This document shows positions 54,715 to 59,155 of a stretch of 64,000 bases of DNA, piece after piece. Positions within the stretch are counted from its first letter, which is position 1. The number at the start of each line of letters is the position of its first letter. This stretch comes from Escherichia coli (lineage in GTDB: Bacteria; Pseudomonadota; Gammaproteobacteria; Enterobacterales; Enterobacteriaceae): the NCBI RefSeq assembly GCF_041886205.1, contig NZ_CP169029.1. One strand, given 5' to 3'. The notes under the pieces were generated by a model that saw only the letters and a list, made by a program, of their open reading frames with translations, did no database searches and was not told where the DNA came from. Both the position numbers and the translations under genes were made by a program.

Positions 54715-55633
54715 ATTTAGCCATGTCAGCAAACTGTTCGGCGCACAAAAAGCCGTTAACGATCTCAATCTCAATTTTCAGGAAGGGAGTTTTTCGGTGC
54801 TGATTGGCACATCTGGCTCCGGTAAATCCACCACCCTGAAAATGATTAACCGCCTGGTGGAGCATGACAGCGGCGTGATCCGCTTTGCCGGAGAAGAAAT
54901 TCGCTCGCTGCCAGTACTGGAGTTGCGCCGCCGGATGGGCTATGCCATTCAATCTATTGGCCTGTTCCCCCACTGGAGCGTGGCGCAAAACATCGCTACC
55001 GTGCCGCAATTACAAAAATGGTCGCGGGCACGGATTGACGATCGTATCGACGAATTAATGGCGCTACTGGGGCTGGAGTCAAATTTGCGTGAGCGTTATC
55101 CGCATCAGCTTTCCGGTGGTCAGCAGCAACGTGTGGGAGTGGCGCGCGCACTGGCTGCCGATCCGCAAGTCTTACTGATGGATGAACCTTTTGGCGCACT
55201 GGACCCGGTAACGCGCGGCGCGTTGCAACAAGAGATGACGCGCATTCACCGTTTGCTGGGGCGCACTATTGTGCTGGTCACTCATGATATTGATGAGGCG
55301 CTACGGCTGGCAGAACATTTGGTATTGATGGATCACGGTGAAGTGGTGCAGCAGGGCAATCCGCTGACGATGCTGACTCGTCCGGCGAATGATTTTGTCC
55401 GCCAGTTTTTTGGACGTAGTGAACTGGGTGTGCGCCTGCTTTCGTTACGTAGTGTGGCGGATTACGTGCGTCGCGAAGAACGTGCAGAAGGTGAGGCACT
55501 GGCAGAAGAGATGACGCTACGCGATGCGCTCTCCCTGTTTGTCGCGCGGGGATGCGAGGTGCTGCCGGTGGTGAACATGCTGGGCCAGCCTTGCGGCACG
55601 CTGCATTTTCAGGATCTGCTGGTGGAGGCGTAA
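54707..55633 (+). CDS. yehX: ABC transporter ATP-binding protein YehX
   Basis: 308-aa ORF with Walker [18 protein letters not shown] signature and a C-terminal CBS-like region. Confidence 0.9.
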
Positions 55634-55637
55634 ACGT

Positions 55638-56369
55638 ATGAAGATGTTGCGCGATCCGCTGTTCTGGCTCATTGCTCTGTTTGTGGCACTGATTTTCTGG
55701 CTGCCTTACAGCCAGCCGCTGTTTGCTGCCTTGTTCCCACAACTGCCACGACCCGTTTATCAGCAAGAAAGTTTTGCAGCTCTGGCACTGGCTCATTTCT
55801 GGCTGGTGGGAATTTCGAGTTTGTTTGCGGTGATCATTGGTACTGGTGCCGGAATTGCAGTCACTCGCCCGTGGGGCGCGGAATTTCGCCCACTGGTGGA
55901 AACTATTGCCGCCGTTGGGCAGACTTTTCCGCCTGTCGCAGTGCTGGCGATTGCTGTTCCGGTGATCGGCTTTGGTCTGCAACCAGCGATTATCGCCTTG
56001 ATCCTGTACGGCGTGCTGCCCGTCCTGCAGGCGACACTTGCCGGGCTGGGAGCGATTGATGCCAGCGTGACAGAAGTTGCGAAGGGTATGGGAATGAGTC
56101 GTGGTCAGCGACTGCGTAAGGTCGAGCTACCGCTGGCGGCTCCGGTGATTCTGGCGGGCGTGCGAACTTCGGTGATTATCAACATTGGTACGGCGACGAT
56201 CGCCTCAACGGTAGGGGCCAGCACGCTGGGTACGCCCATCATCATCGGGCTTAGCGGATTTAATACCGCGTATGTGATCCAGGGGGCGTTACTGGTGGCA
56301 ATGGCGGCGATCATTGCAGACCGCCTGTTTGAAAGGCTGGTGCAGGCGCTTAGCCAGCACGCAAAATAA
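55638..56369 (+). CDS. yehW: ABC transporter permease YehW
   Basis: 243-aa polytopic membrane ORF; last gene of the osmF-yehYXW operon. Confidence 0.9.
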
Positions 56370-56457
56370 AGGTATAACCTGCGAGCATGACGCCACCAAT
56401 TCCGCCTAACGCCATAAACAGGAACAGGGCGATGACCCCAATTTTAGCTATGCGCAT
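56350..56457 (-). CDS. yohO: Small membrane protein YohO (35 aa)
   Basis: Hand translation gives [35 protein letters not shown] with an AAGGAG Shine-Dalgarno 7 nt upstream; its 3' end overlaps the yehW 3' end by 20 nt on the opposite strand. Not in the ORF track. Confidence 0.6.
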
Positions 56458-56516
56458 AATGCACTCCTTATGTTAACGAAAGGATTGTACAGTAAAGCGC
56501 ATTTGTTAACGAATCA

Positions 56517-57248
56517 TTAAATGCCGAGTGGGAAAATATCATAGCCTTGTTCTTGCCAACTGGTGAGTTGCTGTTGTTGGGCGGAGGTTCGATTTTCACC
56601 GCACCACACCAGCAATGTACGGCCTTCAAACAGTTCAGGGCGTAGTTGATTGAGTGAGTGGGCGAGGACATCAATGCGCCAGCCTTGTTGACTGGCAATC
56701 CAGCCCTCCAGCCACAGACGGGTGGTATCGTGAATATTCCAGCCAACCACCAGCGCATCTTTACCCTGTTTTTTACGTGCCGAAGCCAGACAGATGGCGA
56801 TGTAGTTGATCAGTACGCCGTCGAGGATCGCCAGCAGCGCCTGGAGAGTCGGTTGTTGGCACTGAAGCCGTCGGCGCAGAGGAATAAACAGATGTGTGGT
56901 GAGTGTCTGGGCGGGGTAATCCTGACCACGCTCTTTGATCCACGTTCGCAGGCTATGCAGATTGCCGCTTTGCAGGTAAGTCAGTAATGTTTCTTGCTGA
57001 TCGCGCCAGCCATTCTGCACATCAACATTTTCATTACTGAGCAGCATTTTTACTTTGCTGACCTGCACGCCGTTGTCGATCCAGCGTTTAATCTCGCGGA
57101 TCCGGTCAATATCGGCATCGTTGAACAGCCGATGACCGCCGTCTGTCCGTTGCGGTTTCAGCAATCCGTAACGCCTCTGCCACGCGCGTAACGTGACAGG
57201 GTTAATATCACAAAGCAACGCCACTTCACCAATTGTGTAAAGCGCCAT
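56517..57248 (-). CDS. mlrA: MerR-family regulator MlrA (YehV)
   Basis: 243-aa ORF with MerR HTH N-terminus (MALYTIGEVALLCDINPVTLRAWQRRYGLLKP). Confidence 0.9.
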   Translation of the reverse strand: MALYTIGEVALLCDINPVTLRAWQRRYGLLKPQRTDGGHRLFNDADIDRIREIKRWIDNGVQVSKVKMLLSNENVDVQNGWRDQQETLLTYLQSGNLHSLRTWIKERGQDYPAQTLTTHLFIPLRRRLQCQQPTLQALLAILDGVLINYIAICLASARKKQGKDALVVGWNIHDTTRLWLEGWIASQQGWRIDVLAHSLNQLRPELFEGRTLLVWCGENRTSAQQQQLTSWQEQGYDIFPLGI

Positions 57249-57469
57249 CGTCTCACCCTTGCTCGCGAGGTCCCGGTTTAACTTTAGACGCAGTTTTGCG
57301 AACCAGGTAGTTTTGCCCGTTTTTTGTGCATCTATAGGGTGATTTTATTTTTGCCAGGCGATTTTGAGTGATCATACTCACGAATTCTCATTTTTCTGCA
57401 AGAGTTCAAAGAAAGTTAAACGCAGGCAATGTATGTTACGCGTTTTAAAGGGAAGTGTGGTTTGCGGGT

Positions 57470-59155
57470 ATGTACGATTTTAATCTGGTGTTGCTGCTGC
57501 TTCAGCAGATGTGCGTTTTTTTAGTCATTGCATGGTTAATGAGTAAAACGCCATTATTCATACCGTTAATGCAGGTCACGGTTCGTCTGCCGCATAAATT
57601 TCTCTGCTACATCGTCTTTTCCATCTTCTGCATCATGGGCACCTGGTTTGGGTTGCACATTGACGATTCTATTGCCAATACCCGTGCGATAGGCGCGGTA
57701 ATGGGCGGCTTACTCGGCGGTCCGGTCGTCGGTGGGCTGGTTGGTCTGACCGGCGGGTTACATCGATATTCGATGGGGGGCATGACCGCGTTAAGTTGCA
57801 TGATCTCGACCATCGTTGAAGGATTGCTCGGCGGCCTGGTACACAGCATCCTGATCCGCCGCGGGCGCACTGATAAAGTCTTTAACCCCATTACCGCCGG
57901 TGCCGTCACGTTCGTCGCTGAAATGGTGCAAATGCTGATCATCCTGGCGATCGCCCGACCTTATGAAGATGCGGTGCGTCTGGTGAGTAATATTGCTGCG
58001 CCAATGATGGTCACCAATACCGTCGGCGCGGCGCTGTTTATGCGTATATTGCTCGATAAACGCGCGATGTTTGAAAAATACACTTCGGCTTTTTCTGCCA
58101 CTGCGCTGAAAGTGGCGGCCTCGACGGAAGGCATTTTGCGCCAGGGGTTTAACGAAGTGAACAGCATGAAAGTGGCACAGGTGCTGTATCAGGAGCTGGA
58201 TATTGGTGCAGTCGCGATTACCGATCGAGAGAAATTGCTGGCCTTTACCGGAATTGGTGACGACCACCATTTACCCGGCAAACCGATTTCTTCGACTTAC
58301 ACCTTAAAAGCGATTGAAACCGGTGAAGTGGTCTACGCTGATGGCAACGAAGTACCTTATCGTTGCTCTTTGCATCCGCAATGCAAACTGGGGTCGACGC
58401 TGGTAATTCCGTTGCGTGGTGAAAATCAGCGGGTGATGGGCACCATCAAATTGTATGAAGCCAAAAACCGTTTATTCAGTTCAATCAACCGCACGCTGGG
58501 CGAGGGGATTGCGCAACTGCTTTCGGCGCAGATCCTCGCCGGGCAATATGAGCGGCAAAAAGCGATGCTCACCCAGTCAGAGATCAAACTGCTTCACGCC
58601 CAGGTGAACCCCCATTTTTTGTTTAATGCGCTTAACACCATTAAAGCGGTGATTCGCCGCGACAGCGAACAGGCCAGCCAGCTGGTGCAATATCTTTCCA
58701 CTTTTTTCCGCAAAAACTTAAAGCGGCCTTCGGAGTTTGTTACTCTCGCCGACGAAATTGAACATGTGAACGCTTATCTGCAAATTGAAAAGGCGCGCTT
58801 CCAGTCGCGGTTGCAGGTCAACATTGCTATTCCGCAAGAATTATCCCAGCAGCAATTGCCCGCGTTTACCCTGCAACCGATAGTGGAAAACGCCATTAAA
58901 CATGGGACATCACAACTGCTGGATACAGGGCGAGTGGCAATCAGCGCCCGACGTGAGGGGCAACATTTGATGCTGGAGATCGAAGACAATGCCGGTTTGT
59001 ATCAACCGGTAACCAATGCCAGTGGGCTGGGGATGAATCTGGTGGATAAGCGTTTACGTGAACGGTTTGGCGATGACTATGGGATAAGCGTCGCCTGTGA
59101 GCCTGATAGTTACACCCGAATAACGTTACGACTACCATGGAGGGACGAGGCATGA
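57470..59155 (+). CDS. btsS: LytS-type sensor histidine kinase BtsS (YehU)
   Basis: Start placed at [11 protein letters not shown] (561 aa); 5TM-LytS membrane domain, GAF, then His kinase ([14 protein letters not shown]). Confidence 0.9.

Follow-up and report, generated by a model that had tools for sequence, protein, structure and literature searches.

Small proteins of the inner membrane that bind larger membrane proteins are exemplified by the pairs AcrZ-AcrB, MgtS-MgtA and CydX-CydAB. The protein encoded by yohO, the gene analyzed here, is like them in its size class (about 30-50 amino acids), in its single transmembrane helix and in the conservation of one face of this helix. The genetic setting differs: where the partner of such a protein is encoded in an operon with it, the two are transcribed together, but yohO faces yehW in convergent orientation and would have a promoter of its own.

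The arrangement of the two genes has its closest counterpart in the convergent excludons (PMC12288877), which share with it the convergent orientation, the overlap of the transcripts and an intergenic space that is small or missing. The pair yohO-yehW is listed there by name, as one of the 165 convergent pairs that ExcludonFinder returned for E. coli MG1655; a listing means that transcript overlap was called in at least 50% of 58 MG1655 RNA-seq samples (PMC12288877). The outcome that defines an excludon is mutually exclusive expression with the involvement of RNase III, whereas yohO-yehW is known here by its architecture alone.

A transcript from the orthologous locus of Klebsiella pneumoniae MGH 78578 was described by Seo et al. 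in 2012 (PMC3536570). This 800-nt segment, observed in exponential phase (NC_009648, 2810932-2811731), contains a putative ORF of 37 amino acids (2810962-2811075) and is antisense to 92.4% of yehW. It starts 30 nt before the ORF, which is the 37-residue form of YohO, and a sense operon segment (2810882-2814821) covers it completely. The ends of these transcripts are approximate, as the tiling-array signal was segmented by RNA polymerase binding. In that work, the transcript is presented as an unannotated antisense RNA (Fig. 1C) and separately as a putative ORF, and it is never named the yohO mRNA.

The window analyzed here is the whole stretch of 64,000 nucleotides of E. coli DNA (RefSeq assembly GCF_041886205.1, contig NZ_CP169029.1), along which all positions without another reference are counted. 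The genes at the point of convergence are the following.

56350..56457, minus strand: yohO coding sequence (ORF list, RefSeq annotation, NCBIfam NF010225 at 80.1 bits, pN/pS lowest in its own frame).
56464..56469, minus strand: Shine-Dalgarno sequence AAGGAG, 6 nt upstream of the yohO ATG, read from the sequence.
55638..56369, plus strand: yehW, permease of 243 amino acids, last gene of the osmF-yehYXW glycine betaine ABC transporter operon.
56350..56369, no strand assigned: yohO/yehW coding overlap, 20 nt, tail-to-tail (ORF list, RefSeq annotation).
56517..57248, minus strand: mlrA, the upstream neighbor on the yohO strand, with its stop codon 59 nt before the yohO ATG.

The ORF starts with an ATG and comprises 35 codons followed by a TAA stop. 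It is yohO (b4542, UPF0387), an already annotated E. coli gene for a 35-residue membrane protein, and reference annotation and published catalogues also record both its coding overlap with yehW and the transcription across it. The name given to it in the preliminary description of this DNA agrees with the RefSeq annotation and with the match to the NCBIfam equivalog NF010225, “protein YohO”, which is well above its cut-off of 57 bits and covers the full length (residues 1-35 of 35). The size cut-off offered there as the reason for its absence from the initial ORF list is plausible: ORFs below 60 amino acids are left out by default, and yohO appears when the minimum is set at 20. In the RefSeq record of K-12 MG1655, yohO (b4542) occupies 2215657..2215764 (+) and yehW 2215745..2216476 (-), which also overlap by 20 nt. 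K-12 YohO (b4542; UPF0387; NF010225; PF27791, UPF0387_membrane) is identical in protein sequence and alike in gene position and overlap, with no difference between the two loci. The region matches 5423 of 5426 complete E. coli genomes, and yohO is annotated between mlrA and yehW in every record among the matches listed, as well as in one record fetched in full. To note, a local Pfam-A hmmscan of YohO returned only a sub-threshold match to B12D, without the UPF0387 family, whereas YohO homologues bear the precomputed Pfam label PF27791 (UPF0387_membrane); this discrepancy probably reflects a difference of version or filter.

The 35 residues of YohO are too few for a homology query, and YehW was used as bait instead. 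The best 80 yehW loci, each representing one species, span Escherichia, Salmonella, Citrobacter, Enterobacter, Klebsiella, Kosakonia, Leclercia, Cedecea, Buttiauxella, Pantoea and others. A YohO homologue lies directly tail-to-tail with yehW in 79 of these 80 species, and the ATG-initiated ORF is intact in 78, with 34, 35 or 37 codons. The exceptions are L007, a frameshifted assembly of Citrobacter amalonaticus, and L079, an Enterobacterales genome without yohO, in which yehW ends before an unrelated convergent ORF of 714 amino acids that, on reading its sequence, we take to be pta-like. In L007 (3713-3820; strain AUH_CA_2023_1), yohO is broken near its 5′ end, in this assembly only, and sister strains differ from it by a one-base shift of the upstream sequence; the break is either a genuine frameshift or a homopolymer error of the long-read assembly. 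Homologues of YohO are shown to be confined to the Enterobacteriaceae and close relatives, and the family is narrow: an exhaustive representative search among 1.84 billion proteins yielded no more than 17 cluster representatives (clusters at 50% identity). Each of them shares at least 60% identity with the query, and several are obvious truncations or fusions.

Selection was assessed on the 28 codons outside the overlap, where the pooled pN/pS is 0.25 in the yohO frame versus 0.45-2.4 in the five others; the value of 0.45 comes from the antisense frame that has its wobble positions in common with yohO. Relative to E. coli, the median dN/dS is 0.13. Judged from such substitution patterns, purifying selection on yohO is specific to the annotated frame. 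The strong AAGGAG ribosome-binding site pointed out in the preliminary description is indeed found at 56464-56469 (-), 6 nt before the ATG, and AAGGAG or CAGGAG occupies this site in most of the 79 species loci, with a few weaker variants. The excess of the AAGGAG-N6-ATG pattern in the window (6 occurrences versus 0.32 expected from shuffles) indicates that it marks real starts.

Translation, whose absence would have refuted the preliminary description, is documented: Ribo-seq coverage lies in the correct yohO frame (bioRxiv 10.1101/2020.05.05.079178) and top-down mass spectrometry has detected the protein (PMC12529367). ORFs of 20-40 codons arise by chance many times in the region, and yohO might have been one more such open frame and no gene. 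Conservation, frame-specific selection, the ribosome-binding site, the curated family match (NF010225), Ribo-seq and mass spectrometry together refute this reading, which we reject and to which we attach a negligible probability.

The preliminary description had recognized a hydrophobic peptide with a single transmembrane segment, and the predictions agree. YohO is strongly hydrophobic (GRAVY 1.58, best 19-residue Kyte-Doolittle mean 2.41), and AlphaFold2, run on a 25-sequence alignment, predicts a single continuous helix from residue 3 to residue 34 with a pLDDT of 91. With 35 amino acids and one hydrophobic helix, the protein falls within the UPF0387 family, whose members have about 35-37 residues. 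The invariant residues G19, G22, V23, M24, L25, G27 and Y28, together with the near-invariant K5, M15, A16, I20, G21 and I31, make up a face of the helix with many small residues. Conservation alone suggests a glycine-zipper-like packing role for this face, M15-A16-x-G/S-G-I-G/S-G-V-M-L-A-G-Y28, through which YohO would act in the inner membrane, packing against itself or against a larger membrane protein. YohO is a membrane-associated small protein according to Hemm et al. (2008), as cited in bioRxiv 10.1101/2020.05.05.079178. The searchable literature, outside which the primary Hemm papers lie, yielded no function, partner or phenotype for YohO, and a PDB sequence search found no solved structure that contains it. 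Some published observations touch upon the gene: RNA-seq of Shigella under anaerobiosis reports yohO down by 2.96 log2, in a paper silent on yehW, osmF and mlrA, and the first round of a screen for alanine export recovered the ASKA clone of yohO, induced with IPTG (PMC10299036).

The spacer between mlrA and yohO is 59 nt long, and three conserved features precede the yohO start codon.

56484..56489, minus strand: putative sigma-70-type -10 box TACAAT, its end 26 nt before the ATG; nearly all of the 79 loci have it at this position.
56458..56477, minus strand: conserved short leader GTTAACATAAGGAGTGCATT, with a GTTAACAnAAGGAG block conserved across genera.
56504..56521, minus strand: conserved upstream element TTTAATGATTCGTTAACA, consensus TTAATGGTTCATTAACA, from alignment A1 and 79 upstream sequences.

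In the window the sequence of the -10 box is TACAAT; most other genera have TATAAT. Loci with an upstream neighbor other than mlrA keep the box, and its position agrees with the K. pneumoniae transcript segment, which starts 30 nt before the ORF. From the position of this box, transcription would start at or near the 5′ end of the leader. The upstream element, which is partly palindromic (TTAATG..CATTAA), starts from the stop codon of mlrA and lies where a -35 box would stand. Klebsiella and locus L086, in which mlrA is not the adjacent gene, have kept it. The element looks like a regulator binding site; to our knowledge, none of the MlrA, OmpR, Fur and ArgR consensus sites fits it convincingly, and no regulator is claimed. 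A recognizable -35 box is absent, and for want of a good one the consensus promoter scan missed the -10 box and did not call the yohO promoter.

Since the -10 box, the TTAATGnTTCATTAACA element and the GTTAACAnAAGGAG leader persist at loci without mlrA as a neighbor, we infer that yohO forms a transcription unit by itself, with a conserved promoter of its own. Transcription would be driven by the TATAAT/TACAAT box, preceded by the TTAATGnTTCATTAACA element, and would produce a leader of ~20 nt with a strong Shine-Dalgarno sequence, making of yohO an independent and constitutively translatable small-protein gene. Read-through from mlrA into yohO may also occur, because no terminator-like hairpin lies between the two genes. 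Two further observations were made in the spacer. A second TTAACA box is located 33 nt downstream of the upstream element, just before the Shine-Dalgarno sequence. The promoter geometry of the Citrobacter freundii complex (L010, L011, L013, L014, L016, L019, L027, L029, L030 and L034) differs from that of the other genera, the spacing from TTAACA to the -10 box being about 8 nt shorter (ATTAACAAACGTGTACAAT), with the -10 box and the leader kept.

At the other end of the gene, the 20-nt antisense overlap with the end of yehW was correctly placed in the preliminary description, bases 56350-56369 being shared by both coding sequences. An overlap of 14-26 nt is found in all 79 species loci that bear yohO, and also in eight extra loci of divergent context (L082-L089). 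With the E. coli record L001 included, it measures 26 nt in 42 loci, 20 nt in 35, 17 nt in 2 and 14 nt in 1, the last being Pantoea; the 26-nt overlap goes with the 37-residue form of YohO, which ends in FIVRGGVG. The forms of 35 and 37 residues differ by a 6-nt indel in the shared bases, in frame for both genes, and YehW lengthens accordingly from 243 to 245 amino acids. Within the overlap, the C-terminus of YohO is less variable than the tail of YehW (lower column entropy), and so it seems, from these alignments, to be YohO that carries the stronger constraint in the shared bases.

The other side of yohO is less constant. The gene mlrA adjoins it in most genera and is displaced or absent in several Klebsiella and other loci. 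In the two most divergent homologues, yohO lies downstream of metG and an HTH regulator, or of a TonB-dependent receptor; both keep a 20-nt overlap with the yehW homologue, and the full four-gene operon is present. The overlap is ancestral, and none of the yohO loci examined lacks it (79 of the 80 species, plus L082-L089). It would most simply explain the fixed linkage of yohO and yehW: the shared bases would lock the two genes together, because a rearrangement between them would destroy one of the two. Further along the window, the ORF of btsS (57455-59155, +) begins mechanically at GTG 57455 and encodes 566 amino acids, while the RefSeq start lies 15 nt downstream and gives 561 (L001 4471-6156), an ordinary start-codon ambiguity.

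No convincing conserved intrinsic terminator was found at the yohO/yehW junction on either strand by consensus scan, by folding or by comparison of the 79 loci. The consensus scan gave weak matches at chance level, and folding of both 3′ flanks gave no structure beyond shuffled controls (z = -0.97 and -0.23). Within 500 nt downstream of yohO, a hairpin followed by a U-tract is absent in 67 of the 79 loci and takes scattered positions in the rest. Two terminator-like matches, in yohO (56440-56425, -) and in mlrA (56552-56567, +), were rejected as weak, not conserved in position and at chance level. A search of Rfam with 55500-57600 gave no family match. As no conserved terminator stands at the junction, the yohO and osmF-yehYXW mRNAs would run through each other: the yohO mRNA would read on through yehW in antisense, and the operon mRNA would read through yohO. 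The two unterminated RNAs could thereby pair over a long stretch, which is how a convergent excludon is built. A marginal SELEX peak of the RpoE holoenzyme has been reported inside yehW, between yohO and yehX, at the cut-off intensity of 4.0 (older K-12 coordinate 2214150; PMC5493296).

The Klebsiella transcript can be identified by its geometry. A yehW of 738 nt overlapped over 26 nt predicts an antisense coverage of 682/738 nt, that is 92.4%, in exact agreement with the published value (PMC3536570). This agreement identifies the “antisense RNA” against yehW as the yohO mRNA, running about 656 nt past the stop codon. Transcripts ending before the overlap would have contradicted the arrangement proposed in the preliminary description; the 800-nt Klebsiella transcript and the E. 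coli excludon listing both run counter to such an ending. The preliminary description had gone further and proposed that convergent transcription could couple the expression of the small protein to that of the transporter operon. Published maps support the overlapping transcripts, and this part of the proposal holds. The coupling itself finds no support, no effect of one transcript on the other having been found in the sources or computations of this analysis.

The account that best explains the whole, and which we consider very probable, is that of a genuine gene for a single-pass membrane protein, with its own promoter and with convergent transcripts that are left unterminated. Interference between yohO and yehW expression is possible but unproven within this account, and the readings that add to it differ in what they make of the overlap. 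Conservation of the coding overlap in 79 of 80 species and the lack of a conserved terminator on either side would suit a functional excludon, in which transcriptional interference or cleavage of the duplex by RNase III makes the expression of yohO and osmF-yehYXW reciprocal, with yohO prevailing during growth and the stress-induced operon taking over under stationary or osmotic conditions. The 800-nt antisense transcript that extends over 92% of yehW in exponential-phase Klebsiella points the same way, as does the 5′-end binding site of the Klebsiella yehW operon segment, found in additional file 10, presumably the RpoS list (PMC3536570). However, the sense and antisense segments of Klebsiella coexist, both being called in one exponential-phase sample, and no measurement of reciprocal expression was found in the literature. 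The place of E. coli yohO-yehW in the core “excludome” also favors reciprocity, but ExcludonFinder necessarily flags any convergent pair with overlapping coding sequences, provided that both are expressed, and conservation of the overlap is expected anyway once coding sequences share bases. Reciprocal control is hence a tentative reading, to which we give some weight while holding it improbable on balance. A neutral origin, with the arrangement a by-product of a compact genome, YohO engaged in an unrelated membrane process and the RNAs without mutual effect, has in our view an even chance of being correct. Short overlaps of the tail-to-tail kind are common, as are missing terminators (E. coli alone has 165 overlapping convergent pairs), the length of the overlap drifts among 14, 17, 20 and 26 nt, and the YehW tail encoded in it is variable. 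Against this, the antisense extension of ~650 nt in Klebsiella offers at least an opportunity for interference, and the neutral and regulatory readings are the same as far as sequence data can separate them.

Two other readings concern the protein. YohO could be a dedicated accessory subunit or regulator of the OsmF-YehYXW transporter, by likeness with other small membrane proteins that bind transporters, and this would explain why it is never found apart from yehW. The linkage to yehW is constant while the other neighbor varies (mlrA, metG with an HTH regulator, or a TonB-dependent receptor), and an invariant transmembrane face of small residues is suited to helix packing. But the overlap by itself explains the linkage, and at least one yehW homologue (L079) does without yohO. 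The genes are convergent and have separate promoters; co-transcription or co-regulation with the transporter genes was looked for, and yohO was found on the opposite strand with a conserved promoter that would be its own. With no interaction data in the literature and no PDB structure containing YohO, a dedicated role in the transporter appears distinctly unlikely. A small hydrophobic single-helix peptide with an overlapping antisense transcript also recalls a type I toxin, whose mRNA would be kept in check by the 3′ end of the yehW operon RNA. The Shine-Dalgarno sequence is, however, strong, conserved and accessible, and YohO is translated and detected in ordinary cultures; the gene is single-copy, fixed in synteny across the bacterial family and under purifying selection. 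In a bioassay screen, the induced ASKA clone was recovered as one of the candidates and was viable (PMC10299036), and the region is without an Rfam match. No dedicated antisense RNA gene with its own promoter was found, the only antisense transcript being the 3′ end of the four-gene transporter operon; nor is there a conserved plus-strand promoter within yohO, where the single consensus match (56432-56460) is within chance expectation. On the detection in normal cultures, the viable induced clone, the fixed synteny and the missing antisense RNA gene, the toxin reading was rejected and is held to be extremely improbable.

To what was already on record for yohO, this analysis makes modest additions: the overlap is ancestral, the constraint within it seems to be on the C-terminus of YohO, the gene appears to have its own promoter without a terminator, and the Klebsiella antisense RNA is the yohO mRNA. 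It is rather unlikely, in our estimate, that the never-broken pairing of yohO with yehW reflects function, be it that YohO acts on OsmF-YehYXW, that the 3′ extension of its mRNA is an antisense brake on the operon, or both. Should the RNA overlap or YohO itself control the transporter, the locus would provide a tractable example of a small-protein gene that doubles as an antisense regulator. A constitutive small-protein gene and a stress-induced transporter would then make up a reciprocal switch conserved across the Enterobacteriaceae.
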